64,000 bases of DNA, taken from assembly GCA_900315885.1 (NCBI GenBank), contig ONAT01000004.1, positions 32,580 through 96,579 on the forward strand. Reading direction: 5' to 3'. Both the position numbers and the translations under genes were made by a program. Of the stretch, positions 2,970 to 46,509 are shown in pieces (positions within the stretch are counted from its first letter, which is position 1; every line of letters starts with the position of its first letter). This stretch comes from an uncultured Erysipelotrichaceae bacterium. Its GTDB lineage: Bacteria > Bacillota_I > Bacilli_A > RFN20 > CAG-826. The notes below the pieces were generated by a model. It was not told the DNA's origin and did no database searches. It saw only the letters and a list, made by a program, of their open reading frames with translations.

Positions 2970-3051
2970 ATTTTCACCTCATAGTTATTTTCTTTCATTA
3001 ATTTGTATATAATACTGGTTAAAAATGCTATATTATTTTTAGGTGATTATT

Positions 3052-3579: not shown

Positions 3580-3600
3580 TACTTTTATTGAGTATCAATA

Positions 3601-3630
3601 AACACCTTGTTTTTCAAGGTGTTTTTTCTT
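3601..3630 (+). terminator. Rho-independent terminator (AACACCTTG / CAAGGTGTT + T-run)
   Basis: 9-bp perfect stem, loop TTTTT, followed by TTTTTTCTT. Confidence 0.7.
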
Positions 3631-3659
3631 AAAATAATAGCAAGAAGTTGGTGAAGTAC

Positions 3660-5390
3660 ATGTTAAAAAGGTTTGTCTATTATTATAAAGATCATCGTCT
3701 AATGTTCGCATTAGATATGACTGCTTCATTTTTTATTGCTTTAATTGGTTTAGGCTATCCTATTTTAACGAGATTACTTTTACATACCTTTATTCCTAAT
3801 GGGAATGTATCTAAGATTGTTTGGTCTGGTTTAGGACTACTCGGTATTTATGCAGTACGCATGTTGCTTCGTTATTTTATTCAATATTATGGACACGTGA
3901 TTGGTGTTGAAATGCAAGCTCAAATGCGAAGAGATTTATTCAATAAATTACAGAAACTGCCTTATTCTTTTTATGATGAACATGAGTCGGGCAAAATTAT
4001 GTCGCGTATGAGTGTTGATTTAATGGATATAAGTGAATTAGCACATCATGGACCAGAAAACTTCTTTATTTGCGGTATCTCAATTATCGGCTCATTTGTT
4101 TATTTGGCAATTTTCGTTAATCTAACACTTACATTAATTATCTTTGCTTGTGTACCAATTTTAGTAACTATTTCAATTATTTTGAGAAAGCGCATGCTAG
4201 GTGCTTTTAAAAAGTCTCGTGAAGCAATTGCGCTTATTAATGCTTCAGTGGAAAGCAGTATTACAGGTATTAGAGTTACGAAAGCTTTTAATAACACGGA
4301 GAAAGAAACAGAAAAATTCGAACACAGTAATGAAGAATTTGTAAAAGCAAGAACAGGTGTCTTTAAAAATATGGCACAATTTATGTCCACGACTGAATTT
4401 GTCACAGATGCTTTCAATGTTATTGTTATTGTGGCAGGTGGTTTATTCTTAATTCAAGGAAAAATTGATGCGGTAGATTACACGACATTTATTACTTCAT
4501 TAAGCTTGTTCTTATCACCAATCAACACTTTGACAAGATTTATTGAACAACTACAAGATGGAATTACAGGCTTCCAACGTTTCTTAGAAATTATGGATCA
4601 AAAAGAAGAAGACCTTAATTTATCCGGAATTAATTTAAATGATGTTAAGGGCGATATTGAATTAAGGGATGTATCATTTAATTATGAAACATCCGGAGAA
4701 ATCTTACATGATGTCAATTTAAAAATCAAACACGGAACAATGCTTGCTTTAGTGGGAGAATCCGGAGGAGGGAAAACCACGATTTGTCACATTATTCCAA
4801 GATTTTATAAAATAAATTCTGGCCACATATTAATTGATGGACATGATATTGATGACCTTAACATTGTTTCTTTAAGAGACAATATTGGAATAGTTCAACA
4901 AGATGTGTTCTTATTTAATGGCACAATAAGAGATAACATATTATATGGAAAACTTAATGCAACAGAGGAAGAATTAATTGAAGCAAGTAAAAATGCTGGA
5001 ATTTATGATTATGTTATGAGTTTACCTAAAGGTTTTGAGACTGTTGTAGGTGAACGTGGTGTTAAGTTATCGGGTGGACAAAAACAAAGAATATCAATTG
5101 CGAGAGTATTTTTAAAGAATCCAGCAATTCTTATTCTTGATGAAGCGACTTCAGCCTTAGATAACGCGACTGAAATGGCAATTCAAAAAGCTTTAGATAA
5201 TTTAACTAAGGGAAGAACCACGATTGTGGTAGCGCACCGTTTATCCACAATTAAAAACGCTGATGAAATTGCGGTTATTTCTGGTGGAATGGTAAAAGAA
5301 ATAGGTTCACATGAAGAATTATTAAAAAATAGGAAGGAATATTATGCTTTATATCAAGCACAATTTAAAGTAAACGAGAATGAAGACTAA
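3660..5390 (+). CDS. ABC transporter ATP-binding/permease fusion (type I exporter, MsbA-like)
   Basis: N-terminal 6-TM domain. Walker A GESGGGKTT, signature LSGGQKQRISIAR, Walker B ILILDEATSALD. Confidence 0.9.
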   Translation: MLKRFVYYYKDHRLMFALDMTASFFIALIGLGYPILTRLLLHTFIPNGNVSKIVWSGLGLLGIYAVRMLLRYFIQYYGHVIGVEMQAQMRRDLFNKLQKLPYSFYDEHESGKIMSRMSVDLMDISELAHHGPENFFICGISIIGSFVYLAIFVNLTLTLIIFACVPILVTISIILRKRMLGAFKKSREAIALINASVESSITGIRVTKAFNNTEKETEKFEHSNEEFVKARTGVFKNMAQFMSTTEFVTDAFNVIVIVAGGLFLIQGKIDAVDYTTFITSLSLFLSPINTLTRFIEQLQDGITGFQRFLEIMDQKEEDLNLSGINLNDVKGDIELRDVSFNYETSGEILHDVNLKIKHGTMLALVGESGGGKTTICHIIPRFYKINSGHILIDGHDIDDLNIVSLRDNIGIVQQDVFLFNGTIRDNILYGKLNATEEELIEASKNAGIYDYVMSLPKGFETVVGERGVKLSGGQKQRISIARVFLKNPAILILDEATSALDNATEMAIQKALDNLTKGRTTIVVAHRLSTIKNADEIAVISGGMVKEIGSHEELLKNRKEYYALYQAQFKVNENED

Positions 5391-5796
5391 AGAAATATGG
5401 CGTTTTATTAAATTTACATTATTTTCAATTTCAGCAGGAGTTATTCAATTTGGTTCTTTTGCACTTTTTAATGAAGTAATTTTCCATGATGGCGAGTTTG
5501 GTTTATCATACTTTTTATCTTTGGTGTTATCAATCTTATGGAATTTTACTTTTAATTTTAAATTCACCTTTAAGGCCGCGACAAATGTGCCAAAGGCTAT
5601 GGCTCTAGCATTCTTGTTCTATGTGTTCTTCACCCCTATTAGTGTCTTTGGTGGCAATTGTTTAACGAAAGAATGTGGATGGAATAATTATCTTGTGGAA
5701 GCAATTATGATGGTATCTAATTTTATTTTAGAATTCTTTTGGTCTAAATATGTCACATATCGAAATAAAATTGATACTAAGCCAACTACAGAATAA
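5380..5796 (+). CDS. GtrA family membrane protein
   Basis: 138 aa, 4 hydrophobic segments. FIKF.LFS..AGVIQ and WNFTFNFKFTFK resemble GtrA-like proteins. An 11-nt overlap with the exporter stop suggests translational coupling. Confidence 0.7.
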   Translation: MKTKEIWRFIKFTLFSISAGVIQFGSFALFNEVIFHDGEFGLSYFLSLVLSILWNFTFNFKFTFKAATNVPKAMALAFLFYVFFTPISVFGGNCLTKECGWNNYLVEAIMMVSNFILEFFWSKYVTYRNKIDTKPTTE

Positions 5797-32877: not shown

Positions 32878-33135
32878 GTGCTTTTTATTTTAAAGGGACA
32901 ATATAAAGCCAAAATTGTATTGGGAAGTGAAGATGTGCTAGAAAGAGTTTACCAATATTACATAATGCACGATATTGATAAGAGTGATACAAAAGCAATC
33001 GTCTTTGAAAAAGTTTATCTTGTAAAAGAAAGATATTCTATGGACGAAATTGCTATTTTAGCAAACACTTCTGAAAGTACAATAAGGCGTACAATTAGGT
33101 CATTTAGTAGCCTAATAAAGAAGCTAATTAACTAA
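32878..33135 (+). CDS. Small sigma-70 region-4-like helix-turn-helix protein
   Basis: C-terminal ...VYLVKERYSMDEIAILANTSESTIRRTIRSFSSLIKKL fits the region 4.2 HTH pattern. The start is uncertain (GTG 32878 or GTG 32935). Confidence 0.55.
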   Translation: MLFILKGQYKAKIVLGSEDVLERVYQYYIMHDIDKSDTKAIVFEKVYLVKERYSMDEIAILANTSESTIRRTIRSFSSLIKKLIN

Positions 33136-33164
33136 AATGCTTACGCCCTTATATCATAAGTATT

Positions 33165-33198
33165 AAAGAGAGATTTTATCATGAATCTCTCTTTTTTT
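33165..33198 (+). terminator. Rho-independent terminator after the HTH gene
   Basis: AAAGAGAGATT / AATCTCTCTTT hairpin followed by a T-run. Confidence 0.7.
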
Positions 33199-33269
33199 AC
33201 CTAGCAAATGTTGCAAGGAACTTGTCAAAATATGTCGAATTATAATGAAAACAAAGGAGGGTGAAATAA

Positions 33270-33737
33270 GTGAATTTTGATAATTTAAAACCATATGAAT
33301 TCTTTTTTAGTGTTGGTTATGTAACTTTAATAGCGAGTGTATTGACACTTGTAATTACGCAGTTAATAAAAAAGATCTTAACTAAAAAAGGAATTCTATA
33401 TGAAGGTATGGAACAAAGCAAAAGAGATATGTTTTTGTCACGCATTGGACGCATTGTTGCATTATTAAGCTATGTTGCAATTTATCTAATTAACGCATTC
33501 TTAACTAAGCATACTTTGGTGTTAGACAAATCTCTTCTTGCAGGTTTACTGAGTGGAGCATCATTAACTCTTGTTATTGCAAAATCAATTTATACTTCGC
33601 TACATCAATATTTTAAAAAGAAAAATGTTTTTGAGCGACTTGAGTGTTTAGAAAAAGTAATTGATGTTTTAGAAAATGAAGTAAATCAAGATGAAAAAGA
33701 GAAAGTAAATAAATGGCTATTAACTAATAATAAATAG
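33270..33737 (+). CDS. Small 3-TM membrane protein with charged C-terminal tail (holin-like topology)
   Basis: AAGGAGG then GTG 33270. Three hydrophobic segments: FFFSVGYVTLIASVLTLVITQLI, IGRIVALLSYVAIYLINAFL, LLAGLLSGASLTLVIAKSIY. The tail is ...ENEVNQDEKEKVNKW. It ends 9 nt before the Rhs gene. Confidence 0.6.
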   Translation: MNFDNLKPYEFFFSVGYVTLIASVLTLVITQLIKKILTKKGILYEGMEQSKRDMFLSRIGRIVALLSYVAIYLINAFLTKHTLVLDKSLLAGLLSGASLTLVIAKSIYTSLHQYFKKKNVFERLECLEKVIDVLENEVNQDEKEKVNKWLLTNNK

Positions 33738-33746
33738 GAGGACAAC

Positions 33747-36700
33747 ATGAAAAAGATAATAGTAAAAGAAAGTACAAATGAAGTTATAGATTCTTCTATA
33801 AAAGAAGAAAACAAAATCAAAAAAGATGAAAAACAAAAATTTTTTGATATAAAATTTGAAAACAATTTAAAGAATAAAAAAGTTTTTAGTTTAACAAAGG
33901 ACAAACACCAAGTAGATTTATCATTTCTTGGTAGAAAAGGAAAAGAATTAAGTAATGCACAAGGTGTAGAAATTGGTAATCATGTAAAATACACAAATTT
34001 TGAAAAAGGGTTAGATTTATCGTATGACTATCAAGATAATCTTGTTAAGGAAAGTGTAATTATTAATGAAAGAAAAGATAATTATGATTTTAGTTTCTCT
34101 TTAAACATTGGAGAGTTAAAACCAATATATAATTCTGAAACAAGGACATTAGAATTAAAAAATAATGGTAACACAATTTATCGCATTCTTAGCCCATTTA
34201 TGGTCGATAAAAACAATGTAAGAAGTGATGATTGTTCTTATGAAATTGAACAACAAGATAGTAATTTGATGATTAATTTACATTGTGATTCCGATTGGAT
34301 TAATGATGAGAGTCGAGTGTTTCCAGTAGTGGTAGATCCTACAATTGAAGTTGTAGGAGATGTTATACATGTTAAACAATATGTTGATGATAGTATTGAA
34401 GAATCTAGAGGGCTTAAAATTGGGTTAGATAGGTATGGAGTTTATGATTTAGAATTTGTCGTTAACTGCAGTTTGCTTAAAAAGAATATAAATGACTTTA
34501 GTAGAGTTGTTATATCATTGCAGGTTATGTCACATTTAAATGACATGATGTCATCAAATCAAGAGTATCAACTAACTTTTGGTAATAACAAAATATATGC
34601 AATAAGGCATAGCGATATAAAAGATGTCGTTAGATTTGATATTACTGATTTGGTCCTTGAAACATCTACAAACCTTAACTTAAAATTCGGCCCTGTAACA
34701 AGAGATTCTACTATTCAAAAAATAAATGGTAAAGTAATTTATAGATCATTTAAAACCTACTTTTATCCTTTTAGTTATAGTAAAGATGAAAGTAAAAAAT
34801 CAGAACTCATTATTGAATATGATAAGAAAAAGTGTTTTAACAATATAAAAGATTATAATGTTGGTAAATTAAATAGTTTGCTAATCGATATAAGAAATGG
34901 TGATTATAAAATTATTAATGATTTAGACTTTAAGCTTAAGTCGAACACTATTGATTTCGATGTGAAAGCTGTTTATGACAATCAAAATTCAAATAATTAT
35001 TACATGAGTGACTATTGGAAAACCAATTTACATCAAATTTTAGAGAAACCATCTTCTTATCAAAGTGTTTTAGGCGCAACACGAATTACTTATGTTGATG
35101 GCCTAAACAAAAAACATATTCTTATGACAAAATGGTATTATGTAAAAAATAACCAAAAGAACTATGTTCAAAAAAAAGATATATATTTAGATAGCGATGG
35201 AAAGCTCAAATATAATAAAGATGGTCAAGTTTATGAAATTAAAAGCGAAACCACTAATGAAGAAGGTATTACATATGCATCAGGAAATGACATTTCTAAT
35301 TTCAATCAATTAAAGGATTCAACAAAATATCATTACGAGATTAAATGTGGAGTTGGGACAATAAGTGATATCCAAATAATTAATTATACTAGAATTAAAA
35401 TACCAAAATATGTGGAACAAATTGATAGCAATGGAACAGAAGAAGACATTAGATTTGAAAACATAGATATTATAAATGGAAAGTCATTAATTTCCGGAAA
35501 CAATGTCATATTAAAAGGAACACAAGAAGTTGCATTAAAAGCAGACGGAGATGGTCTCTACTTTAAATATCAAGTATATATTGATGATGAAGTTTGCATA
35601 GAAGAACAACGAGTGGATATTAAACCAGATTTAGATAATTATGACGCAAACGATGATATCTATTTAAATGAAGATATCTTAAATATTAATTCACAAATTA
35701 AAAGTATAGAGAACTCTAAAAGACAAGCATATCTATCACTAAATTCTGCGATTACATCAATTCGTAATTTAGATGAACAAATTACATATCAATGGCGACT
35801 TATTGCTAGAACTGGCACTAAAGAATATGATGCTGAATTTAAACGTTTATATGAAGATAATAGTATAGGAATGAAAACTTTAAAAAGTTTTATTACAAAA
35901 TGCAACGATAGTGAAGATTTAAATGGTGCATTTAAATTGGATAGTAATGGCAAATTACAAGTTGTATTAGCGGATAAGGTTAGTGAAACGAAAAATGCAG
36001 GAACTGTATTAAGTGTCATTTCAAATTATTTAACATTATTAGGTAACAAGATTACTTTGCTAAATAAAACTATTGAAAAAGATTACTCCGGTGACTATGA
36101 AAGTTTTCAATTAAAATTATTGAATCGTCAATATAACGATGCAAAAGAACAAATGGAATTAATGATAAATAGTTGCTTTGAATATGATAAACAACTAGAT
36201 TATTTAAAAGGGCAAAAGAATCAATTAGTAAATAGTCAAAAGAAAGAAATAAATGACTTTATTATTGATAAAGATGGCAACACTCTTGGATTTGATGGTT
36301 ACGGACATTTAATTCTTATTCAGGACAGATATGAAAATAAAATAAATATTGAATATGATTATGATGATATTGAGACGGGTAGATTAAGTAGAGTCATAAG
36401 TGATATGAATACTTTAGAATATCATTACAATAAAGTTACTAAATTGTTAGATTATATTGGCGATTCAAGAGGAGTAAATACTAAATTTGTATATATCGGT
36501 GATGAAGAATTGCAATTAAGTTCAATCGCTGGGGCAAAAGAAACCACTACATTTAGTTATGGTAATACTTTCATAATAAAAACGTTATTAAATAGTCTTA
36601 AGTTAATTCATAATGACGATGATACAGTTAGTGTTAAAGAGTATTATTTAAACACAAAAATTGGTGAGAATATAACTTTTGATAGTTCTGTAGACGAAAT

Positions 36701-39700
36701 TAATACAACTGATGATTTATATATTTTTGATACAACAAGTTATTTAAAAACAATTATTAGAGATAAGAAAACAAATAATAGTAATGATTTAAATGAAACG
36801 AAAGAAGATGAAGTATATTACTTTTCATCATCTGGAAAATGTGTTAAGAATGTAACTGATGAATTTGTAAACGTATCTTATTACAATCTTGACTTACTTA
36901 AACAAGAGGCAACTTATAGAAATAACGATGAAGTGATTATAAAGCCATTAACAATATATGGAGAAAGTCATGAATATAGTTTCGATTTGACTAGTAACAA
37001 TAATGAGTTATTAAACAAGATAAAGCAAGCAGACCTTATTGGACTTAAATTAGTTTTAAACACAGGAAATGTTGATAACATAGGTATTCTTGATTTGGCT
37101 TTAAGAGTTGATGTTACTACGAGCACTAATAAAGTTGAAACCTTCAGCGAGTCATTCCAAGAGCTTAAACTCCAAGAAGTTGTGTTACCTATTTTTGTTA
37201 ATACAAGTAATATCAAAAAGTTAGTCATAAATGTTACGAGTAAGTCTAGTGACTTCAATGATAGTTATATAGATGTTCTTGACCTTATTGCCTTAGAAAA
37301 TGGTGCCACTTATAAATACGATAATAAAGATAGGTTGATATATAAACAAGATAAAGAAGCAAAGATAACTTATAGCGATTTCGATGCTCATGACAACCCT
37401 TTACAATCAGTTAGTGTTGATAAGTATGACGCAACAGTGACTACTAAATATGCATACGATGTTGAAAATAGATTGACATACGTTGAAGATTCTTTAGGCA
37501 ATGTTAACGAATATTATTACGATGATAATGGACAATGCATTAAAAAGAGATCGTATAATAAAGAAGATGCTTCTTTAGTGCGTCAAGAAACATATGAATA
37601 TGATGATAAAGGACGTATTAAAGATAAAAAAGGACCAATTAAAAATAAAAATAAGGACTATCCTTTAGAACATATTGAATACTTACCTCATAGTGAAGTA
37701 ACCTCAAAGGTTATAGGATATAATAAACTAGCTACAAATTATACCTATGACTATTTAACTAATGACTTATTGTCAATAAGTGCAAGTGCAGATGGTATTA
37801 GTAATTCAAATTCATTTGGCTATACAAAGGGTTTCTTGACATCTGTTTCAAGTCGTGGAGTTAAGGTTAAGTATGTGTATGATGGAAGAGGCAGAATTGA
37901 GTCTATATATCTTAATGATGATAGTGAAGACAATATTGATGGTGATATTGAAGATGATAAAAAGGCTTTTATAAGTAATGCTTATGTCGACAATTATAAT
38001 AGTAATCCAAGTAGTCTAGAAAACGACTTAAATATTAAATATGGCACATATCAAAAATCCACATATAAAAATGGATTAGAGGAAGGCATCTTTACTAACT
38101 CAAAAGGCCAAGTTTTAAGAGTGGAAACTGAAGAAACGGATAGAACTATTAGAATTGATAATACATATGATTCAAATGGTAATATTACAAATACACAAAG
38201 CACAATAACTGAAGGCGATGTTGTAACAACAGAAGATGTTACTTACACATATGATAGTCATAAAAAATTAACTAAAATGGTTAAAAAGATTGATGATGAA
38301 AGTGTATATGAAATAGAGTATGAATATAACGATAGAGATTTAATGGATGGCGAAACTATAAAACTAGATGGTGAAGACATTGAGACTGGATATGATTATG
38401 ATTTAAAAAGAAGGATAACACATGCTCTTCAAGATAATTACAATTGTGATATTACATATGATGCCCTAGATCGTATTACTCATAAAGAAGTCGGAGAAGG
38501 TAACGTTACGATTTGTCATACGTACTCTTATCTTAAAGAAGAAGATAATAGTTTAGATTTAATCGCTAGTGATATCGTTAAAGTCAAAGTGGTAAATGGT
38601 GATAATACAACTTATCAAATTGAAACTAATAGATATAGTTACGACGAAATGGGAAATATCATAGAAATAGATTGTGATGAAAGTAAAACAAGATATAAAT
38701 ATGATGCCTTAAGTAGATTAGAAAGAGAAGATAATCCATCTTTAAATAAAACTATAGTTTATAAGTATGATGAAAAAGGAAATGTCATTTTGAAAAAGAC
38801 CTATTCATATACATTAGATGATAAACTAGAAGAAACTCCTGTCATAGATGAGTATGTGTATTCATGTTCTAATTGGGGAGATCAATTGATTGATTATAAT
38901 GGTAAAACCTTTAAATATGACAATATGGGAAGACCATTAGTGTATAAAGGCGATACATGTACATGGAGTCAACGAGGTGAATTAAAGAGTGTAAAGAAAG
39001 ACAATCAAGAAGCATTTAAATACTATTATGACGCGAATGGTATACGAAACAAGAAAATAGTGAATGGCGTAGAAACAAAATTCGTAGTAGTGGGAACAAA
39101 GATACTAAAAAGCATCATAAAGGTAGGAAATGAAGAAAGAACAATAAAATACAAATACGTTCTAGATAAATTAGAAGGATTTGTATATACTAAAGATGGA
39201 ATATCAAAAGAGTATAGATACGAACGAAATATATTTGGAGATATTACAAGGCTATATAATAGTGAGGGAAGCATAGAAGCAACATATGTATATGATGCAT
39301 ATGGAAGGGTAAAAGTAATAAACTCAATAGGCGAAGAAGACACTAATATAGAATTCATAGGTAATATAAATCCATTTAGATATCGTGGATATTATTTTGA
39401 TATTGAAACAGGATTGTATTACTTAAATAGTAGATATTATGATCCAGAGTTAGGAAGATTTATAAGTCCAGATACAATGGAATATTTAAGCCCTAACAAT
39501 ATTAATGGATTGAATTTATATTGCTATTGTAATAATAATCCGATTAATAAATACGACTCTACAGGACACTTTGGAATTTGGGCAATTATAGGAATTGTAT
39601 GGGCTGCGATTCTTTTAGGAGGAGGGGCTCAATTGGCATCCAATGCACTTGCTGGTGAAACAGGTAGTGATTTATGGCGAGGAGTTGCTGGTTCAGCATT

Positions 39701-40130
39701 GGGTTCTGGTGTAAATGCATTGGCATTAATTTTGGCTCCATTTACTGGGGGAGCCTCATTAGCATTTGCCGCTGGGTTAGGGGCTGTGGTTCAAACTGGC
39801 GTTGATACACTCGAAACAGTTATTAGAGGCGAAAATGTGAATGGTTTGCAAACAGTTGCTGACCTAGGTATTAATTTTGTTACTACATTTGCTGGTAACT
39901 GGTTGGGGGCAAAATTGGTTCCTACGAACAGTGGTTGGTTTCAAACGAAAAATTTCTTGAGTGTATTTATAAAACCTTATGGACAAAAAATTTTATTACA
40001 AACTGCAATTGGTGCTGGACTATCAGGAACTGTCAATTTTGCAAGAAAATTTGACTGGAGTAGTATTGATTGGAGAAAGTTTGTACCAGCAATACCTGTT
40101 CCAATGATTCCAATTTATCCGTATTTTTAG
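33747..40130 (+). CDS. RHS/YD-repeat polymorphic toxin, 2127 aa, no N-terminal signal peptide
   Basis: AGGAGG RBS. Many YD repeats from about residue 845 onward (YEYDDKGRIKDK, YTYDSHKKL, YKYDALSRLERED, YVYDAYGRV). RHS core end RYYDPELGRFISPD...NLYCYCNNNPINKYDSTGH. Confidence 0.95.
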   Translation: MKKIIVKESTNEVIDSSIKEENKIKKDEKQKFFDIKFENNLKNKKVFSLTKDKHQVDLSFLGRKGKELSNAQGVEIGNHVKYTNFEKGLDLSYDYQDNLVKESVIINERKDNYDFSFSLNIGELKPIYNSETRTLELKNNGNTIYRILSPFMVDKNNVRSDDCSYEIEQQDSNLMINLHCDSDWINDESRVFPVVVDPTIEVVGDVIHVKQYVDDSIEESRGLKIGLDRYGVYDLEFVVNCSLLKKNINDFSRVVISLQVMSHLNDMMSSNQEYQLTFGNNKIYAIRHSDIKDVVRFDITDLVLETSTNLNLKFGPVTRDSTIQKINGKVIYRSFKTYFYPFSYSKDESKKSELIIEYDKKKCFNNIKDYNVGKLNSLLIDIRNGDYKIINDLDFKLKSNTIDFDVKAVYDNQNSNNYYMSDYWKTNLHQILEKPSSYQSVLGATRITYVDGLNKKHILMTKWYYVKNNQKNYVQKKDIYLDSDGKLKYNKDGQVYEIKSETTNEEGITYASGNDISNFNQLKDSTKYHYEIKCGVGTISDIQIINYTRIKIPKYVEQIDSNGTEEDIRFENIDIINGKSLISGNNVILKGTQEVALKADGDGLYFKYQVYIDDEVCIEEQRVDIKPDLDNYDANDDIYLNEDILNINSQIKSIENSKRQAYLSLNSAITSIRNLDEQITYQWRLIARTGTKEYDAEFKRLYEDNSIGMKTLKSFITKCNDSEDLNGAFKLDSNGKLQVVLADKVSETKNAGTVLSVISNYLTLLGNKITLLNKTIEKDYSGDYESFQLKLLNRQYNDAKEQMELMINSCFEYDKQLDYLKGQKNQLVNSQKKEINDFIIDKDGNTLGFDGYGHLILIQDRYENKINIEYDYDDIETGRLSRVISDMNTLEYHYNKVTKLLDYIGDSRGVNTKFVYIGDEELQLSSIAGAKETTTFSYGNTFIIKTLLNSLKLIHNDDDTVSVKEYYLNTKIGENITFDSSVDEINTTDDLYIFDTTSYLKTIIRDKKTNNSNDLNETKEDEVYYFSSSGKCVKNVTDEFVNVSYYNLDLLKQEATYRNNDEVIIKPLTIYGESHEYSFDLTSNNNELLNKIKQADLIGLKLVLNTGNVDNIGILDLALRVDVTTSTNKVETFSESFQELKLQEVVLPIFVNTSNIKKLVINVTSKSSDFNDSYIDVLDLIALENGATYKYDNKDRLIYKQDKEAKITYSDFDAHDNPLQSVSVDKYDATVTTKYAYDVENRLTYVEDSLGNVNEYYYDDNGQCIKKRSYNKEDASLVRQETYEYDDKGRIKDKKGPIKNKNKDYPLEHIEYLPHSEVTSKVIGYNKLATNYTYDYLTNDLLSISASADGISNSNSFGYTKGFLTSVSSRGVKVKYVYDGRGRIESIYLNDDSEDNIDGDIEDDKKAFISNAYVDNYNSNPSSLENDLNIKYGTYQKSTYKNGLEEGIFTNSKGQVLRVETEETDRTIRIDNTYDSNGNITNTQSTITEGDVVTTEDVTYTYDSHKKLTKMVKKIDDESVYEIEYEYNDRDLMDGETIKLDGEDIETGYDYDLKRRITHALQDNYNCDITYDALDRITHKEVGEGNVTICHTYSYLKEEDNSLDLIASDIVKVKVVNGDNTTYQIETNRYSYDEMGNIIEIDCDESKTRYKYDALSRLEREDNPSLNKTIVYKYDEKGNVILKKTYSYTLDDKLEETPVIDEYVYSCSNWGDQLIDYNGKTFKYDNMGRPLVYKGDTCTWSQRGELKSVKKDNQEAFKYYYDANGIRNKKIVNGVETKFVVVGTKILKSIIKVGNEERTIKYKYVLDKLEGFVYTKDGISKEYRYERNIFGDITRLYNSEGSIEATYVYDAYGRVKVINSIGEEDTNIEFIGNINPFRYRGYYFDIETGLYYLNSRYYDPELGRFISPDTMEYLSPNNINGLNLYCYCNNNPINKYDSTGHFGIWAIIGIVWAAILLGGGAQLASNALAGETGSDLWRGVAGSALGSGVNALALILAPFTGGASLAFAAGLGAVVQTGVDTLETVIRGENVNGLQTVADLGINFVTTFAGNWLGAKLVPTNSGWFQTKNFLSVFIKPYGQKILLQTAIGAGLSGTVNFARKFDWSSIDWRKFVPAIPVPMIPIYPYF
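39570..40127 (+). other. Rhs C-terminal toxin domain (186 aa, glycine/alanine-rich, hydrophobic)
   Basis: Starts right after the core-terminating NNPINKYDSTGH motif. Small-xxx-small glycine-zipper-like runs: LLGGGAQLASNALAG, GVAGSALGSGVNALALILAPFTGGASLAFAAGLGAVV, AIGAGLSG. Confidence 0.7.
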
Positions 40131-40140
40131 AGGTGAAAAT

Positions 40141-40528
40141 TATGATTATTAAAGATAAATTAATAAAAGAGTATCCGCTAACTAAAAAAATAGATTGTTC
40201 TTTTGAATGCTTTGAAGTTATGAAAAGAAGGTATGTTATTTTTTATGATGAAAAAATCAATAAAGAAAATATGGAATCTTTATTGGATGTATTTAATGAT
40301 AATTCGAAAAATAGCTTTACAGAAAAAAGAACATTAATTATAGTTGGGCATACGGATGAAAAGTTTAATAAAAAAGATTTATTGTTTTTTAACGGAGTTG
40401 ATACATTTGTTGTTTATTATTTAATAAATGATAACAACAAAGAAATTTACTTTAATGATCAAAGAGTGTTCTGGTTCAGTGTTGATTGGAAAAAAATAAT
40501 TAAAAAATTTAATGAAATATTAAAATAA
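40141..40528 (+). CDS. Candidate cognate immunity protein (129 aa, soluble)
   Basis: GAGGTGA RBS overlaps the Rhs stop, and the ATG is 10 nt after it. This is the canonical immunity position. No family recognised. Confidence 0.6.
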
Positions 40529-40555: not shown

Positions 40556-40598
40556 TAGGTAAGTTTACTCAATGGGTAAGCTTACCTTTATTTTTTAT
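40556..40598 (+). terminator. Rho-independent terminator after the toxin-immunity pair
   Basis: AGGTAAGTTTAC / GTAAGCTTACCT hairpin followed by TTATTTTTT. Confidence 0.65.
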
Positions 40599-40620
40599 GG
40601 TATGGATTCAAAAATAGTCA

Positions 40621-40818
40621 AATTCACGATTTCTATTTACAAAAATCTTTTAAATATTTCATCTGAATGTTAAAATTAAAATAAAGATAGGGGTGAAATA
40701 ATACACGGGTTAATAATGTAATAACAATATAATGTAAAAAAATTAAAAAAATTCATATAATTATTTTCAAAATATTTATATACAATATTTTAGAAAATAT
40801 ATTAGTTAGCTAATTAGA
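40621..40818 (+). repeat. Direct repeat copy 1 (198 nt), upstream region of the 40844 cassette
   Basis: Aligns with 43444..43631. I count 4 substitutions, one 9-nt tandem duplication (AAAAAAATT) and a 1-nt indel. Confidence 0.9.
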
Positions 40819-40843
40819 CACATCAAAGGTTGGAAATTTAAGA

Positions 40844-41053
40844 ATGAAAAAAAAGACGTTTTATCAAACTAATATTTTTTGGCAGTTATTTTGTTTTGTG
40901 TTTCTTGCAATTTTTATATTGATTTTTATAGTCACTGTGCAATGTATTATTGCAATTATAAAAAATGGATTTGGTAAAACAATTTCCGATATAATGGCCT
41001 CTGTGTTTATATTAGCAGTACTTGTTATTGGTTGTTCATTGGCGTTAATCTAA
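40844..41053 (+). CDS. 2-TM N-terminal half of an interrupted 2TM+PH-like gene
   Basis: 69 aa with two hydrophobic helices. Its TAA at 41051 is in frame with ORF 41105..41449, and no other stop lies between them. Confidence 0.5.
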   Translation: MKKKTFYQTNIFWQLFCFVFLAIFILIFIVTVQCIIAIIKNGFGKTISDIMASVFILAVLVIGCSLALI

Positions 41054-41104
41054 TTCATTATTTTAGAACACAACAATGTTCATTTAACAAAAGACAAAAT
41101 ATAT

Positions 41105-41449
41105 ATGAACAATGATTGGAATCCAAAGAAAGATAAAATACAATATTATACTGAAGCATATTTTGCTGATATTGAATCTATTGATATTATTTGGACAAAA
41201 ATGGATTCTAGAGGTAAATTGATTAGACCTAAGCTTATCTCTGCTTCAGTAGAAAAGCCATATTTATCTATAAAAACTAAAGATGGTAAAATATCTAATT
41301 TCTTTGTCATGTATATTCCGAAGAAAAATGTAATAAAAATAATAAATGAAATTAGTTATCGAATGAAAAGTGTAGGGAACAATATTAAGATTATTAATTC
41401 CGATGAAGCATATTTAAAAATTAAGAAAAAAATTTATATCGATATCTAG
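41105..41449 (+). CDS. Soluble C-terminal half of the interrupted 2TM+PH-like gene
   Basis: Same frame as 40844..41053. No SD precedes ATG 41105. The layout matches the soluble halves of 44667..45080 and 45979..46467. Confidence 0.45.
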   Translation: MNNDWNPKKDKIQYYTEAYFADIESIDIIWTKMDSRGKLIRPKLISASVEKPYLSIKTKDGKISNFFVMYIPKKNVIKIINEISYRMKSVGNNIKIINSDEAYLKIKKKIYIDI

Positions 41450-41503
41450 ATATTAAATTATTAAATAGTCACATGAACTAGCAAGAGTATAACTGTTTCA
41501 AGA

Positions 41504-41522
41504 TGTCTTTTTTTAAAAGACA
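41504..41522 (+). repeat. 19-bp palindrome copy 2: TGTCTTTT-TTT-AAAAGACA
   Basis: Perfect 8-3-8 inverted repeat. Confidence 0.9.
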
Positions 41523-41577
41523 AATTTTTCTAAAATTAAAATAGTAAATTGCGATAACACAATTTATCAATTGAATA

Positions 41578-41862
41578 TTGCTAGATTCAATCAAACAATT
41601 AATCAATTGGCATGGCGGAATTGCCTTACTGATTGCTTTCGGAATAAGTACTGTTTTAGGTGGTGTATATGGAAGCGTATCAGTTGCTGAAAGTATACTT
41701 TATGATATTAATAATCCTTATGGGTTTAGAGACTGTGATTGGGGAGAATTTAAACTACATCCAGATCTAGACTTAGAAGAAAAAATTAATCAATTTGAAA
41801 TATTAGGAGATTATAAAGAAGACTTAAGAAAAAGAAGAGAAAAATGGTATAAAGAAGTATGA
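41578..41862 (+). CDS. Small single-TM protein (94 aa) coupled to the cyclase gene
   Basis: TTG start with no obvious SD. Glycine-rich TM GGIALLIAFGISTVLGGVYGSV. The stop TGA overlaps the GAGGTG RBS of the cyclase, whose ATG is 8 nt downstream. Confidence 0.35.
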   Translation: MLDSIKQLINWHGGIALLIAFGISTVLGGVYGSVSVAESILYDINNPYGFRDCDWGEFKLHPDLDLEEKINQFEILGDYKEDLRKRREKWYKEV

Positions 41863-41870
41863 GGTGATAA

Positions 41871-42620
41871 ATGATGTATGAATATGATTATATAAACGGA
41901 AAAAGAAGAGTAAACGAGATACTAAATGATTCCAATGAAATTGAGGCAAAAGAGAAAGTACCAAAAGAAAATGATTTTACTTTTCATAATGGTTATTTTG
42001 CTTGGGTTACTGCTGTATTTGTTGACATAAGGGATTCAACATCAATTTTCACAGAAAATAAGAAGACTTCAACTTCAAAAATTATAAGAGCATTTACTTC
42101 CGAAGTAATTGGAATTTTAAAGGACGACGATAATTTGCGCGAAATTGGTATTAGAGGAGATTGTGTATATGCTATCTATACTACATCCCAAAAATACGAA
42201 GATTATGAAATTGCGAATAAAGTGTTTTATGTAAATACTTTTATGAAAATGTTAAATAAATTATTGCAAAACAAAAACATGAAAACTATTAAAGTTGGGA
42301 TTGGCGTTTCTACAGCACAAGAACTAGTTGTTAAAGCCGGAAGAGAAAAAACTGGCATTAATAACTTAGTATGGATTGGAAAAGCGGTAACTTATGCTTC
42401 TAAATTTTCTTCTTTAGCAAATTCTAATGATTATAATAACATTATTTTTTCCGACAACTTTTATAATAGTTTTATTGGGGATTTAAAAAATAACAATAAA
42501 AATAAAAATGTTGAATCTTGGTTTAAGCAACATAGAGATAGCAAATTGGGTTATTTTTACGACTGTGACATAATCAAATCAGAATTCAATGATTGGATTG
42601 AAAATGGTATGAAAGGATAA
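41871..42620 (+). CDS. Stand-alone class III nucleotidyl cyclase (Pycsar PycC-like)
   Basis: Cyclase homology-domain motifs in order: AVFVDIRDSTSIF (metal Asp 1), IRGDCVYAIY (metal Asp 2), IKVGIGVSTAQELVVKAG, VWIGKAVTYASKFSSLA. 249 aa with no other domain. Confidence 0.7.
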   Translation: MMYEYDYINGKRRVNEILNDSNEIEAKEKVPKENDFTFHNGYFAWVTAVFVDIRDSTSIFTENKKTSTSKIIRAFTSEVIGILKDDDNLREIGIRGDCVYAIYTTSQKYEDYEIANKVFYVNTFMKMLNKLLQNKNMKTIKVGIGVSTAQELVVKAGREKTGINNLVWIGKAVTYASKFSSLANSNDYNNIIFSDNFYNSFIGDLKNNNKNKNVESWFKQHRDSKLGYFYDCDIIKSEFNDWIENGMKG

Positions 42621-42635
42621 CAAAGGAGAGTTTAG

Positions 42636-43142
42636 ATGAACAAAAATGAAGAAAAATATGAAATTTTATCTGGGATAAGTAATCAAATATCATCTTTTGA
42701 TAATAAAGCGAGCATTTTAATTTCAGCTATAGGAATTGTTTTCGCATTATCTTTATCTTTCTTAGATGTGTTTTGTGAAGATGATTTTTTATCAAAATGT
42801 CAAATTTTTAAAATAATTTACTATGCATTATTTATATTATTTATTATCAATACAATTGTTGTAATAGGTTCATATATATTAGTTATTATTCCTAGGAAGA
42901 AAATTGGAAATAATAAATATGCAAATTATTATAACGACATTGCTGATTTAGATATTTATGGTCATAAGGAATATGATGATTTGTTAGAAGATTATACAAA
43001 AAACGATAATTTACTTACAGAACAAATTATTATTAATTCAAAGATATGTAAAACCAAACATTTATTTTTGAAAGTTGGTATAATATCATTAATACCATTT
43101 TCAATATTGTTATTGGTTCTTATTGTACTGACAATAATTTAA
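42636..43142 (+). CDS. Multi-TM effector (Pycsar PycTM-like)
   Basis: AAGGAG RBS 15 nt after the cyclase stop. N-terminal helix with the SFDNKASILISAIGIV motif as I recall it for Pycsar effector domains. 3-4 hydrophobic segments, 168 aa. Confidence 0.65.
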   Translation: MNKNEEKYEILSGISNQISSFDNKASILISAIGIVFALSLSFLDVFCEDDFLSKCQIFKIIYYALFILFIINTIVVIGSYILVIIPRKKIGNNKYANYYNDIADLDIYGHKEYDDLLEDYTKNDNLLTEQIIINSKICKTKHLFLKVGIISLIPFSILLLVLIVLTII

Positions 43143-43351
43143 TTAACAAATATTAAATACGAGATTCCTGCTTTTTTAATATGTAAACTATGTTTTCTGG
43201 TTTCATCAAGGTGTGATGGCACAAGATGCTGTGGCAGATTGTAATCAGTCTTATCTACTTTACGAAACATGATTGATTTTATAGAAAAAGTTTTAAAAAC
43301 TGAGTTTTTAATACCTTCTTTAGCCTATTAGGTGTAAGGAGGTATTTTTAT

Positions 43352-43465
43352 ATGATGCAAATTGTTTTAAATAAGAATACATATTTTATTAACGAATCAT
43401 TTAATGGGGCAACAAGAACATTAATCAATATTCTTAAGAATAGAATTCACTATTTCTATTTATAA
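43352..43465 (+). CDS. Small ORF (37 aa), possibly a truncated gene remnant
   Basis: Strong AAGGAGG RBS. Its 3' end (KNRIHYFYL*) lies inside direct repeat copy 2. Copy 1 has CAA where this copy has the TAA stop. Confidence 0.3.
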   Translation: MMQIVLNKNTYFINESFNGATRTLINILKNRIHYFYL

Positions 43466-43631
43466 AAATCTTTTAAATATTTCATCTGAATGTTAAAATT
43501 AAAATAAAGATAGGGGTGAAATAATATACGGGTTAATAACGTAATAACAATATAATGTAAAAAAATTCATATAATTATTTTCAAAATATTTATATACAAT
43601 ATTTTAGAAAATATATTAGTTAGTAATTAGA
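43444..43631 (+). repeat. Direct repeat copy 2 (188 nt), upstream region of the 43644 cassette
   Basis: See copy 1. The similarity ends just before the RBS of the downstream gene in both copies. Confidence 0.9.
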
Positions 43632-43643
43632 GGGAGACTATCT

Positions 43644-44246
43644 GTGATTATATTTAAAAGAGAAAAAAATGCATTGTTGAAATTTAAGCAATATATAGAA
43701 GGGGAAATGGATTTTGATACTTTCTGGCAAGAATATATTGCTTGTGGCGATTTAATGAAATATTTATGCAAGTTTGATCAAAGAAGGCGTGAAGAATTTT
43801 TGATTAATAATGATTTCATAAATTATTTTTATAACGGAAAACCTGCTTTTCAGTTAAAAGTTGGCTTACAGGCATCAATAATGGCATATTTGAAGAAAAG
43901 AAAAATTAAATTTGAAAACAAAACAAAAGAATATGTTCTATGGGAAAAATGGAATAGTTATATACCAGATTTTGTTCCTTGTAATGAATCAATGTATTAT
44001 TTTATGGAAAACTTAGACAATGGCGTTAGACACTCAAAAAAATATTATCGTGACTATTTTTCAAAGATTTATCAATACGTAAAATATTATCCGCGATGGT
44101 TGCAAATGTGCGAATGGCCTATGGATGATGATGGAACCCCAACTAAATTCTTGTATCAAACTGGTTTTCCTAATAAACATGATTTTATTGAGTATTGGTT
44201 TCTAAAAAAAGATGGTACAAAAATTAAAATAGAACAATACGATTAA
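43644..44246 (+). CDS. Hypothetical soluble protein (200 aa), immunity-protein-like
   Basis: AGGGAG then GTG 43644. Trp/Tyr-rich. No catalytic motif recognised. Confidence 0.55.
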   Translation: MIIFKREKNALLKFKQYIEGEMDFDTFWQEYIACGDLMKYLCKFDQRRREEFLINNDFINYFYNGKPAFQLKVGLQASIMAYLKKRKIKFENKTKEYVLWEKWNSYIPDFVPCNESMYYFMENLDNGVRHSKKYYRDYFSKIYQYVKYYPRWLQMCEWPMDDDGTPTKFLYQTGFPNKHDFIEYWFLKKDGTKIKIEQYD

Positions 44247-44313
44247 TGAGTGCTCAATGTCGGGGACTACAATTAGTGACTTGGTTTTTTTGAAAATTAA
44301 ATGGCTATTAGTA

Positions 44314-44486
44314 GTGTTTAGATGTGTTACTAAAAACGGATTAAAGGTTGCTGAAGTTGTCAGTAAAGACCAGACTTATGTTAGTCAAGTTGCTAAAGTT
44401 GAAGAATGATTGGACAATATTCTCATATATCTAATGGACTAACTCTAGATGCTTTACTATTTATTACAAAATGGTTTGTATTCTAA
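44314..44486 (+). pseudogene. Decayed XRE-type HTH gene remnant (two frames)
   Basis: 44314..44409 reads ...GLKVAEVVSKDQTYVSQVAKVEE*. Shifted frame 44412..44486 reads GQYSHISNGLTLDALLFITKWFVF*. Together they resemble an HTH_3 fold broken by a frameshift. Confidence 0.3.
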
Positions 44487-44534
44487 AAATATCTATTTTT
44501 TTGATTAATGATTAATTGTTTGGAGGTGCATTAT

Positions 44535-44645
44535 GTGAATTCTAAATTTACTTTAAGATTCTTGGCAGCACTAATTGCTGGTGGAACAGAAACTGCCTAT
44601 GATTTAACATCATATTTAATTGGGAAATTAATTTCAGCTTTTTAG
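44535..44645 (+). CDS. Small ORF (36 aa, VNSKFTLRFLAALIAGGTETAYDLTSYLIGKLISAF)
   Basis: GGAGGTG precedes GTG 44535. It ends 12 nt before the RBS of the next gene. It may be a peptide or an orphan toxin-tail fragment. Confidence 0.25.
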   Translation: MNSKFTLRFLAALIAGGTETAYDLTSYLIGKLISAF

Positions 44646-44666
44646 TCATTAGGAGGATTGATTATT

Positions 44667-45080
44667 TTGAAACAAAAATTTTATAAAAATTTATTTCAAA
44701 CGATGTCATATTTTGCTGTAATAATAATTTTCGAGGTGTTTTTACTTATTGGTTTTTTTGCTAGTTTAAGTTATGGTCAAAATTTTGGTTGGATACTATT
44801 GATAATATCTTTATCTTTAATTGCATTATTCTATCTAATAGGGTTTTATTGGATTTTCCAAATAGTATCTATTGATGAACATGGAATTAAAATATTATTC
44901 AAAAGTAAAATTGTTAAGCAACTTAAATGGGAAGAAATAGATACAATAGAAGAAGCAAATATAATGAGAAATCCAGCACTAAGAATTAAAGCATTTGATG
45001 GAAGTGAAATTCATTTAGATAAAAGAAAACAAATTGTTAAAGCGATAGAAATATATTCGCAAAATAAAATAATAAAATAA
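44667..45080 (+). CDS. 2-TM + PH-like small membrane protein (paralog B)
   Basis: AGGAGG at 44651-44656. TTG 44667 has better spacing than TTG 44658. Two TM helices, then a soluble IVSIDEHGIKILFKSKIVKQLKWEEIDTIE... domain. Confidence 0.6.
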   Translation: MKQKFYKNLFQTMSYFAVIIIFEVFLLIGFFASLSYGQNFGWILLIISLSLIALFYLIGFYWIFQIVSIDEHGIKILFKSKIVKQLKWEEIDTIEEANIMRNPALRIKAFDGSEIHLDKRKQIVKAIEIYSQNKIIK

Positions 45081-45172
45081 TTTTATTTAACGCACTGTAA
45101 AAACAGATATTATTAGATTAGTAGGAGACATTGCAAGTTCAATATTCAATAATTTTTAGGAGGACATAAACT

Positions 45173-45358
45173 ATGTGGGAATTTATTAAATATTGTCTAT
45201 ATTGTTTATTAATGTCAATCTCTGCTGCTTTTGGAAACAATCCTGAGGGAATGACATTCAAACACGCAATAGTTGGAAGTATTACAATGTTTGTATTATT
45301 AGGATTAGCTTTGGGCATTCTTTGGTTAATTGCAAGGGTTGTTAATAAATCTAGATAA
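45173..45358 (+). CDS. Small 2-TM membrane protein (61 aa)
   Basis: TAGGAGGA RBS 7 nt upstream. Two hydrophobic segments. Confidence 0.5.
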   Translation: MWEFIKYCLYCLLMSISAAFGNNPEGMTFKHAIVGSITMFVLLGLALGILWLIARVVNKSR

Positions 45359-45396
45359 AATGTAACTTACAAGGTTTATATAGGAGATTAGTTTTA

Positions 45397-45702
45397 ATGG
45401 AAAAACAAAAAAAGAAAAAAACATTAAAATATACAAAATGTTTTAAAGTATATGAAAAAGAATTAACATGGGATTTATTTATTAAATATTTAAATGATAA
45501 TATGGAATTTTGCTTTTATTTGAATGATATAACAATTGATATTGCTTTTCATTATAAGGACAAAATAAAAGTATATGAATTAAATATTTCTTCAGGTGAA
45601 AATAGAACTAATTTAAATTTTAATTCAATAGATGAACTTATTTCTTTTAAAGCTTTTAACAATAAATCACTTTATGATATTTGGGACGAATTAGAGAATT
45701 AA
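45397..45702 (+). CDS. Hypothetical small soluble protein (101 aa)
   Basis: TAGGAGA RBS. Followed by a terminator. No family recognised. Confidence 0.5.
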   Translation: MEKQKKKKTLKYTKCFKVYEKELTWDLFIKYLNDNMEFCFYLNDITIDIAFHYKDKIKVYELNISSGENRTNLNFNSIDELISFKAFNNKSLYDIWDELEN

Positions 45703-45727
45703 TTAATAAATTAACATCTCATTAGTT

Positions 45728-45769
45728 AGATGCATTTGCTACATTAAAGTAGTAGATGCATCTTTTTTT
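45728..45769 (+). terminator. Rho-independent terminator
   Basis: AGATGCAT...ATGCATCT outer stem plus CTAC/GTAG inner stem, followed by TTTTTTT. Confidence 0.6.
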
Positions 45770-45865
45770 GTGTGTAAAGAAATTTTAATAATATTTTTAA
45801 AATTGACCCTCACATTTGTTATTTTAAATGCCCAGTACTATTGAAGGGGGACTCAATTGTTTAAA

Positions 45866-45884
45866 TGTCTTTTCAGAAAAGACA
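45866..45884 (+). repeat. 19-bp palindrome copy 3: TGTCTTTT-CAG-AAAAGACA
   Basis: Perfect 8-3-8 inverted repeat. Confidence 0.9.
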
Positions 45885-45978
45885 AATTAAATCTGTTTTT
45901 TTGATAGATTTCAAATGTTGATTAGCAAAAAATAAAAGCAACTTTTTATAATTGTGATATGATTAAGAAAAAGGAGCT

Positions 45979-46467
45979 ATGGTTTTTGTGAAAAAGATTT
46001 ATTCAAATAAGTCCGTTATTTACTTTTCAATCTTTGGGATTGTTTTTATATCAATAATAATGATTTTGAGTATTATTTCCTTAATGTCTAATGTGGAAGA
46101 AACTACAAATAATATTCTTATGATTATTGTGTTGATATTAATATATTTATTCTTTTTAGTGTTGTTTGTTTTTTCGTTAAATAAATTTGGATATAAAGTA
46201 ATATATGATAGTAATAAAAAAGTTATTTCTAAAAAAGGATTTATCTTTGGACACGAATACCAAATAAAGCTAGAAGATATAAAAGAAGTGGCGGTGTTAT
46301 CACTACCAAAAGAAACAGCTTATTATGTTTTAACTGATTCAAAAGATGATAAACAAGAATCATTTATTAAAATTAAGAAAACAAAAAAGAATGAGGCTTT
46401 TGTAAAACAATTTTGGGATAAAGCAATTAAGGAATACGAAGATTACGAAGAATTGTTTAATAAATAA
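45979..46467 (+). CDS. 2-TM + PH-like small membrane protein (paralog C)
   Basis: AAGGAG RBS. Two TM helices, then YKVIYDSNKKVISKKGFIFGHEYQIKLEDIKEVAV... and a C-terminal helix. Confidence 0.6.
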   Translation: MVFVKKIYSNKSVIYFSIFGIVFISIIMILSIISLMSNVEETTNNILMIIVLILIYLFFLVLFVFSLNKFGYKVIYDSNKKVISKKGFIFGHEYQIKLEDIKEVAVLSLPKETAYYVLTDSKDDKQESFIKIKKTKKNEAFVKQFWDKAIKEYEDYEELFNK

Positions 46468-46509
46468 TTTTAGATATAGTTTTAAATATTGGAAGATTAT
46501 TTATGTTTT

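Follow-up and report, generated by a model that had tools for sequence, protein, structure and literature searches.

A three-helix membrane protein coupled to a signal-less Rhs toxin in an uncultured Erysipelotrichaceae bacterium: a candidate holin-like release partner

By which route Rhs and teneurin-like toxins without signals exit from Gram-positive cells is still an open question, and a recent study noted that some bacterial teneurin-like Rhs proteins have no signals and "may utilize alternative mechanisms" (2026 study, PMC13018210). The question is addressed here with a locus found in a 64,000-nucleotide stretch of DNA from an uncultured Erysipelotrichaceae bacterium (contig ONAT01000004.1; hereafter the window, in which position 1 is the first letter). 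It encodes a 2127-amino-acid (aa) Rhs protein without a signal peptide and, directly upstream, a 155-aa protein with three transmembrane (TM) helices (hereafter the 3-TM protein). An earlier reading of this DNA (the original prediction) had suggested that the pair might form a holin-dependent release system. Following up this suggestion, I propose, with a probability of about one half, that the 3-TM protein serves the signal-less Rhs as a dedicated holin-like partner for export or release, probably of phage origin. The core of this idea, that the Rhs possesses a dedicated membrane partner, is strongly supported, because no cryptic Sec or Tat signal and no helical start of the type VII (T7) kind was found in the Rhs N-terminus, the 3-TM protein could not be assigned confidently to a non-holin family, and the linkage between the two genes is conserved.

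In order to analyse this linkage, I gathered loci from the side of the 3-TM family and, reciprocally, from the side of the conserved N-terminal module of the Rhs (N-module, residues 31–210). These loci (labelled L001, L005 and so on) stem from gut metagenomes and from metagenome-assembled genomes (MAGs) labelled uncultured Mollicutes, Firmicutes, Bacillales, Coprobacillus or Bacilli, and 3-TM lineages were counted as distinct when they shared less than 90% identity. The loci contain 11 such lineages of the Rhs branch, whose 3-TM proteins are 34–50% identical to that of the window; in all of them an Rhs gene comes next, at a spacing that ranges from a 23-nt overlap to a 24-nt gap. The linked Rhs proteins possess the same N-module and lack a hydrophobic N-terminus in 11 of 11 cases, with a highest 19-residue hydropathy mean of at most 0.48 in their first 78 residues, and are ∼2000–2160 aa long where the contig extends far enough. 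In the reciprocal search, the 3-TM gene was present in seven of the eight loci with enough upstream DNA. The flanking regions are unrelated, with housekeeping genes at this locus, L005 and L009, a resolvase and a type I restriction-modification (RM) system in L001, and conjugative-element LPD genes in L007. The conserved linkage that the original prediction called for is therefore borne out from both sides, and the association is not a chance one.

Judged by its domain content, the 2127-aa product is a genuine Rhs/YD-repeat polymorphic toxin, with a repeat shell, a core domain, a variable C-terminus and an adjoining immunity gene. It matches RHS_repeat (PF05593, E = 7e-10) and YD_repeat (TIGR01643), and residues 1849–1941 match Rhs_assc_core (TIGR03696) with 80 bits against a cutoff of 32.5; homologues of this Rhs carry precomputed TEN_YD-shell matches. 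The end of the shell aligns with the solved structures of RhsP (8h8a), Tse5, RhsA (7q97), TccC and YenC2, and all of these alignments stop at about residue 1940. The Rhs-associated core forms the shell end and is the presumed autoproteolytic boundary.

The Rhs N-terminus had been described as hydrophilic, with neither a signal segment, an LXG-like helical start nor a PAAR-like motif, and each part of this description held. In a 19-residue scan over its first 100 positions, the highest Kyte–Doolittle mean is −0.04; the corresponding means for the TM helices of the neighbouring 3-TM protein are 1.7–2.25. Hydropathy and motif reading revealed neither the h-region of a Sec signal nor an RR (Tat) motif at the Rhs N-terminus, and the domain searches gave no PAAR family match. 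The first 30 residues form a leader that starts with MKKIIV and continues as a Lys/Glu-rich hydrophilic segment, of variable length and sequence between lineages. In an AlphaFold2 (AF2) model based on a shallow alignment, residues 8–30 are disordered and the N-module is all-beta, with a predicted local distance difference test score (pLDDT) of ∼80; a second beta domain, predicted with less confidence, comes after it. An LXG/WXG-type helical start, or any alpha-helical targeting domain of the type used by the T7 secretion system (T7SS) of type b, is absent from this model.

The N-module is predicted to be a beta-sandwich, similar to carbohydrate-binding modules (CBMs) and to the pro-TGF-beta prodomain, and ends in the motif FPVVVDPTIE. 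Its best Foldseek match is the chondroitin-sulfate-binding CBM 8wab (target-normalised TM-score 0.57, E = 3.6e-4), and further neighbours include 7vbo, also a carbohydrate-binding module, and the pro-TGF-beta prodomain. As this fold resembles that of extracellular carbohydrate-binding modules, the Rhs is expected to act outside the cell. The N-module (Rhs residues 100–200) constitutes the best-conserved block of the Rhs outside the core, with 44–57% identity in four of six full-length relatives. A distant copy (23% identity over the module) is found in L034 (650–3097), an 815-aa protein with a classical Sec signal, CBM96 and ricin-type lectin domains, and no 3-TM neighbour, suggesting that the N-module is a more widespread extracellular module. 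The copy found in L028 weakly matches Pfam DUF7948. Sequence searches of the PDB with the N-terminal 1200 residues of the Rhs, with an N-terminal profile and with the toxin domain gave no matches, and word-index searches for homologues of the Rhs N-terminus were swamped by low-complexity candidates, returning 2 and 5 matches. Between the N-terminal modules and the YD shell, a segment at residues ∼650–800 (35700–36150) is poorly conserved and largely missing from the relatives (21–75% gaps).

The locus consists of four co-oriented genes, whose reading-frame coordinates were checked (Table 1); those originally given for the first three were correct. The gap between the 3-TM gene and the Rhs gene is 9 nt, and the stop codon of the former lies inside TAGGAGGA, the Shine–Dalgarno sequence of the latter, in the layout TAGGAGGA-N5-ATG. 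Since the 3-TM stop falls within the Rhs Shine–Dalgarno sequence, and the immunity reading frame and a terminator lie downstream, positions 33270–40528 read as one translationally coupled three-gene operon. The two large reading frames are in the same frame, with one TAG between them, and I therefore considered that they could be a split or read-through gene. This was rejected because the stop is located within a strong Shine–Dalgarno sequence, because each gene has its own start, and because other lineages use different frames or overlaps.

The helix-turn-helix (HTH) gene upstream is a separate unit, set off by the hairpin at 33165–33194. A hairpin with a T-run is found 40–90 nt 5′ of the 3-TM start in most related loci (L001, L007, L008, L009, L011, L012 and L027). 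This could be the terminator of the upstream gene, or an attenuator controlling read-through into the toxin operon. No promoter motif common to the operon upstream regions of the related loci was found, only the recurrent hairpin and T-run. In several loci there is no obvious sigma-70 promoter between the upstream hairpin and the 3-TM Shine–Dalgarno sequence. The window is chromosomal, and the island is preceded by secA, prfB, uvrB, secG, rnr and a gene for an M29 aminopeptidase.

Table 1. Features of the 3-TM/Rhs locus, in window coordinates.
Feature	Position	Strand	Basis
Small HTH protein, 85 aa, candidate regulator	32878..33135	+	Sub-threshold HTH matches
Terminator-like hairpin (12 bp) and T-run, between HTH gene and operon	33165..33194	+	
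Shine–Dalgarno sequence (AAGGAGG) of the 3-TM gene, 5′ of its GTG start	33254..33260	+	Direct reading of the sequence
3-TM membrane protein, 155 aa; GTG start at 33270, TAG stop at 33735–33737	33270..33737	+	
Coupling junction, TAG stop of the 3-TM gene embedded in the AGGAGG Shine–Dalgarno sequence of the Rhs gene	33735..33749	+	
Rhs/YD-repeat cocoon toxin, 2127 aa, without signal peptide; ATG start at 33747	33747..40130	+	
Rhs N-terminal leader, aa 1–30	33747..33836	+	
All-beta N-module, aa 31–210 (predicted)	33837..34376	+	
Rhs-associated core domain, aa 1849–1941	39291..39569	+	TIGR03696
C-terminal toxin domain, aa 1941–2127	39567..40127	+	
Candidate cognate immunity protein, 128 aa, soluble	40142..40528	+	
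Strong terminator-like hairpin (14-bp stem) and T-run, operon end	40557..40587	+	

The 3-TM protein corresponds to its original description in length, number of helices, charged tail and distance to the Rhs gene. Hydropathy and the AF2 model place the three hydrophobic helices at residues ∼12–33, 58–78 and 89–107. The first loop is rich in Lys and Arg (6 K/R), the second is short, and the 48-residue C-terminal tail, with 9 K/R and 9 D/E, is helical and continues the third helix. On the basis of the positive-inside rule and the K/R-rich first loop, an N-out/C-in orientation is predicted, and the protein is accordingly predicted to possess the topology of a class I holin, namely three TM helices, N-out/C-in, with a charged C-terminus. 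A polar-face analysis of the TM helices was unremarkable except for the second helix, and is not used as evidence.

I searched for families to which the 3-TM protein could belong. An exhaustive HMMER profile search among 1.84 billion cluster representatives recovered only its own family, consisting of 46 clusters at 50% identity. The 155-aa protein has no match among Pfam, NCBIfam, PHROGs and PADLOC families, and 26 diverse members scanned singly against Pfam and PHROGs gave scattered single matches only, and no holin family. A tblastn search against 50,697 GenBank phage records returned nothing, and the best match of the AF2 model in a Foldseek search of the viral structures of BFVD (E = 0.78) is not significant. 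With Pfam, PHROGs, NCBIfam, the HMMER profile and Foldseek all negative, membership in a known holin family is not borne out; a confident assignment to a non-holin family, which the original prediction had named as its counter-indication, did not occur either. The "holin-like" label rests on topology, on a phage-borne branch of the family and on analogy, and holin family membership is unproven.

This phage-borne branch consists of divergent 3-TM relatives, found on contigs with Gp23-type capsid, gp13-type neck, sheath and tube genes, and placed between the head and tail genes. Its members include P0098 (E = 4e-19 to the profile), P0113 (E = 9e-7 to the profile) and the IMG/VR locus L022 (tblastn E = 3e-15). 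In the uncultured myovirus loci L013 (8288–8932), L016 (3976–4572) and L022 (6002–6553), the gene is located between those for the Gp23 capsid and for the neck/sheath. No endolysin domain was recorded or detected beside the phage-branch genes, and no Rhs N-module was found with them. The branch ties the 3-TM family to phage late operons, without proving a role in lysis.

The toxin domain at the C-terminus of the Rhs (187 residues; 14% Gly, 13% Ala) is strongly hydrophobic. It has no family or PDB match, and is presumed to be a membrane-targeting toxin. Beyond residue ∼1950, the C-termini of the related Rhs proteins are unrelated, with the exception of L009, where the toxin domain is 63% identical, and the downstream protein 42% identical, to those of this locus, while the Rhs bodies are only ∼10–25% identical. 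Since the N-module is conserved while the C-terminus and the downstream gene co-vary in L009, the 3-TM gene travels with the delivery (conserved N-terminal) part of the Rhs, the toxin and immunity genes forming a separate, swappable cassette. The product of the downstream gene is thus the candidate cognate immunity protein. Its cluster at 90% identity has 106 members, compared to 35 in that of the 3-TM protein and 2 in that of the full Rhs, pointing to a wider distribution of immunity copies than of the toxin. The 3-TM protein was itself considered as a toxin-specific immunity protein; this role was ruled out because it is constant while the toxin domains swap, and because a separate, co-varying immunity gene exists.

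The genes located upstream of the 3-TM/Rhs pair are more variable. The original prediction had read the C-terminus of the small upstream protein as a sigma region 4 HTH. The HTH part of this assignment is retained, with sub-threshold matches to HTH_23 (E = 1.6e-3) and to a Csa3/CasR-type HTH (E ∼1e-3), but sigma region 4 is not established: there is no significant match to sigma-70 region 2 or region 4, and the similarity to region 4.2 of the extracytoplasmic function (ECF) sigma factor of L001 (42% over 24 residues, E = 0.2) is not significant. The NCBI version of this protein is 66 aa long, from a GTG start at 32935, and a near-identical record comes from an Erysipelotrichaceae MAG. L011, L012 and L019 encode small proteins of weak similarity at this position (E = 5e-3 to 6e-4, within a very small database). 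Loci of the L001, L007 and L008 type encode an ECF sigma factor (169 aa; TIGR02937, 64.9 bits), a putative anti-sigma factor of 199 aa with a single TM helix, and an S8 protease with a signal peptide; these fuller cassettes include a resolvase and lie directly 5′ of the 3-TM/Rhs genes (L001 6298–9884, L007 6326–9886, L008 782–3026). L005 possesses neither the small HTH protein nor the ECF sigma/S8 set. A regulator, originally seen as part of the system, is therefore not conserved, the position being occupied by the HTH protein, the ECF sigma set or nothing depending on the lineage. The HTH protein is best described as a variable accessory and candidate regulator.

Downstream of the toxin operon, a low-GC stretch (40600–46500; ∼25% compared to ∼30% in the flanks) contains small, mostly unannotated open reading frames (ORFs), several of which encode TM helices (40844–41053, 41578–41862, 44658–45080 and 45979–46467). 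It includes a complete Pycsar anti-phage pair just 3′ of the operon (41871–43142), consisting of the PycC cyclase (41871–42620; PADLOC PDLC02368, E = 1e-86; Pfam Guanylate_cyc) and the PycTM effector (42636–43142; E = 4e-19). This stretch may be a variable island of orphan immunity or defence genes.

From these observations, a model for the function of the locus can be proposed. The Rhs would fold in the cytoplasm as a ∼240-kDa cocoon around its hydrophobic C-terminal toxin, with the soluble immunity protein protecting the producer cell. Since Sec, Tat and T7-type targeting elements are all missing from the Rhs, I infer that its export would depend on the co-translated 3-TM protein, which may oligomerise in the cytoplasmic membrane, permeabilise it and let the folded toxin out. 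Release could occur through lysis of a subpopulation of cells, or through a cargo-specific, non-lytic passage as with TcdE, TpeE and TcsE. The released toxin may then bind surface glycans of the target cell through its CBM-like N-terminal beta-sandwich modules and, in some lineages, could be processed by the Sec-secreted S8 protease. A more specific proposal, which I put forward tentatively, is that the 3-TM family represents an unrecognised, cargo-dedicated and holin-like single-gene translocator of phage origin, which would recognise the conserved N-terminal leader or beta-module of its partner and be devoted, among gut Bacillota, to folded ∼240-kDa Rhs/teneurin-like cocoons.

Several observations weigh against a holin-like release partner. 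Confidence in the AF2 model of the 3-TM protein is only moderate (pLDDT 65), and no likeness in sequence or fold to any holin family was found. No endolysin or wall hydrolase is linked to the 3-TM gene in the bacterial or phage loci examined, even though Erysipelotrichaceae are walled bacteria, and the phage relatives are encoded together with head, neck and tail proteins rather than in a recognisable lysis cassette. The 3-TM proteins of the Rhs-linked lineages are 146–197 aa long, and typical class I holins are shorter; TcdE has ∼166 aa. In addition, one related locus, L028, encodes an Rhs (1293–5788) and has no 3-TM gene. This Rhs is near-identical to that of L008 from residue 61 onwards, its first 60 residues being replaced by a TM-containing leader, and its gene directly follows genes for TadZ-like, DUF6382-FHA and prepilin-peptidase proteins. 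L028 may be a recombinant or an assembly chimera.

The absence of holin homology and of an endolysin also speaks for an alternative that I consider unlikely, in which the 3-TM protein does not export the toxin but acts in general self-protection, as a membrane docking or assembly site, or as a regulator of the Rhs, with the toxin leaving the cell by unrelated means, for example through autolysis, prophage induction or vesicles. The morphogenesis modules in which the phage relatives are found could conceivably include a membrane assembly factor, and with a hydrophobic toxin domain the producer's own membrane may need protection. However, a separate immunity gene already co-varies with the toxin, while the 3-TM protein remains constant as toxins change, and the tight coupling and invariant linkage to signal-less Rhs genes are more in keeping with a direct partner than with a generic factor. 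The gene content of L028 brings in another explanation, namely that the Rhs is the substrate of a secretion machine encoded elsewhere (T7SSb or a newer T7SS variant), for which the 3-TM protein would serve as a membrane targeting adaptor or chaperone rather than as the conduit. In Bacillota, T7SS variants show genetic linkage to Rhs toxins without signals (PMC10327511, PMC11217815), and T7SSg/h have been reported beside Tad genes (PMC11217815), reminiscent of the TadZ-like, FHA and prepilin-peptidase genes adjoining this 3-TM-less relative. This appears quite unlikely, since T7SS substrates possess alpha-helical N-terminal domains and small soluble WXG100-like partners (PMC10327511), whereas the Rhs described here has a disordered and then all-beta N-terminus, and an integral membrane protein, not a small soluble WXG100-like or Lap protein, as its only conserved partner. 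Moreover, no EssC-sized ORF or core T7SS gene is found in the window, where the largest non-Rhs ORF encodes an 855-aa P-type ATPase, the 10-kb flanks of L001, L005 and L007 have no recorded Pfam match to FtsK or WXG100, and the possible chimeric nature of L028 reduces its weight.

The surroundings of the operon, a low-GC variable island beside a Pycsar system here and a type I RM system, an AAA_21 ATPase and a VRR-NUC nuclease next to the L001-type locus, would be in line with an intracellular abortive-infection or defence module, where the cocoon releases its membrane toxin upon phage infection and the 3-TM protein is a sensor or co-effector. This is very improbable: no protein of the operon has a PADLOC match, the N-module is CBM-like, of an extracellular type and also present in a Sec-secreted lectin protein, and a Sec-secreted S8 protease is additionally encoded at some loci. 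Furthermore, toxin/immunity cassettes that swap, and a cluster of immunity proteins larger than that of the 3-TM protein (106 compared to 35 members), are hallmarks of interbacterial polymorphic toxins.

A holin-like partner for the Rhs has its closest parallel in the large clostridial toxins. Holin-dependent release of signal-less giant toxins is documented for TcdE (TcdA/TcdB, C. difficile), TpeE (TpeL) and TcsE (TcsL) (PMC9527704, PMC8878733, PMC12150058). As in these systems, a signal-less Gram-positive toxin of >200 kDa is encoded beside a small multi-TM protein with a charged C-terminus (PMC9527704, PMC8878733), the membrane protein has relatives in phages, and some loci have an alternative sigma factor nearby (the ECF sigma of L001 and L007). 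In contrast to TcdE and TpeE, the 3-TM protein has no detectable homology to either of these or to other holin families, and is accompanied by no endolysin or endolysin remnant. The cargo also differs, being an Rhs cocoon with an antibacterial-type polymorphic cassette instead of a glucosyltransferase, and the genes are translationally coupled here. The sigma factor of the related loci is of the ECF type, its likeness to TcdR is not established, and it is absent from the window.

A second parallel is the type 10 secretion system (T10SS), where Tc toxins are released by phage-derived membrane-lesion proteins (PMC10847048). The YenTc toxin of Yersinia entomophaga likewise includes a signal-less Rhs-repeat cocoon (TcB/TcC), and the shell end of the Rhs aligns with YenC2 and TccC. 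However, the T10SS is a Gram-negative system that employs a full holin/endolysin/spanin cassette and the lysis of specialised cells, whereas a lone 3-TM gene is found here in a monoderm host, with neither an endolysin nor a TcA partner at the locus.

Among Gram-positive Rhs systems, Listeria LrhA/LxpABC and the Rhs proteins of T7SSc/d also combine a signal-less Rhs with accessory genes directly upstream and an immunity gene downstream (PMC10327511, PMC11217815). LrhA's alpha-helical N-terminus bundles with three small soluble helical partners, and is encoded beside essC (PMC10327511), while the Rhs described here has a disordered N-terminus followed by a beta-sandwich, an integral membrane partner and no essC nearby. 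WapA and BiTLP of Bacillus inaquosorum share the YD shell of ∼2100–2200 aa, N-terminal binding or adhesion modules, a polymorphic C-terminus and a downstream immunity gene, and the C-terminal domain of BiTLP is hydrophobic and membrane-disrupting (PMC13018210), the toxin domain here being likewise hydrophobic. These proteins carry Sec signals and wall or S-layer anchors, whereas this Rhs has neither, and has a dedicated 3-TM partner. Finally, the S8-PTS/ABP systems (AbpP protease, AbpT toxin, AbpI immunity) pair a secreted S8 protease with a polymorphic toxin (PMC9424270, PMC13460014), an arrangement paralleled in L001, L007 and L008. The ABP toxins are however small, Sec-secreted and contain a BetaH domain, in contrast to the signal-less Rhs and 3-TM protein found here, and there is no S8 gene at this locus.

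I found no prior description in the literature of such a partner for Gram-positive Rhs proteins. A holin route is not mentioned among the trafficking modes in a 2012 catalogue of polymorphic toxins (PMC3482391), and a review of holins makes no mention of Rhs. The locus provides a simple candidate: in Erysipelotrichaceae of the human gut and in related uncultured Bacilli, a single small membrane gene is invariably coupled to that of the toxin. If the proposal is correct, holin-type export would reach antibacterial Rhs toxins, beyond the clostridial glucosylating toxins and the Gram-negative Tc toxins; the 3-TM proteins would constitute a new holin-like family that has relatives in phages, and a compact three-gene cassette capable of releasing very large folded proteins would exist. 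Should the 3-TM protein prove to be a dedicated translocator, it would represent a new protein-export route for Gram-positive polymorphic toxins. Set against the systems above, the protein family, the class of cargo and the host group appear to be new, and the process itself, holin-type release of signal-less giant toxins, appears to be of a known kind.

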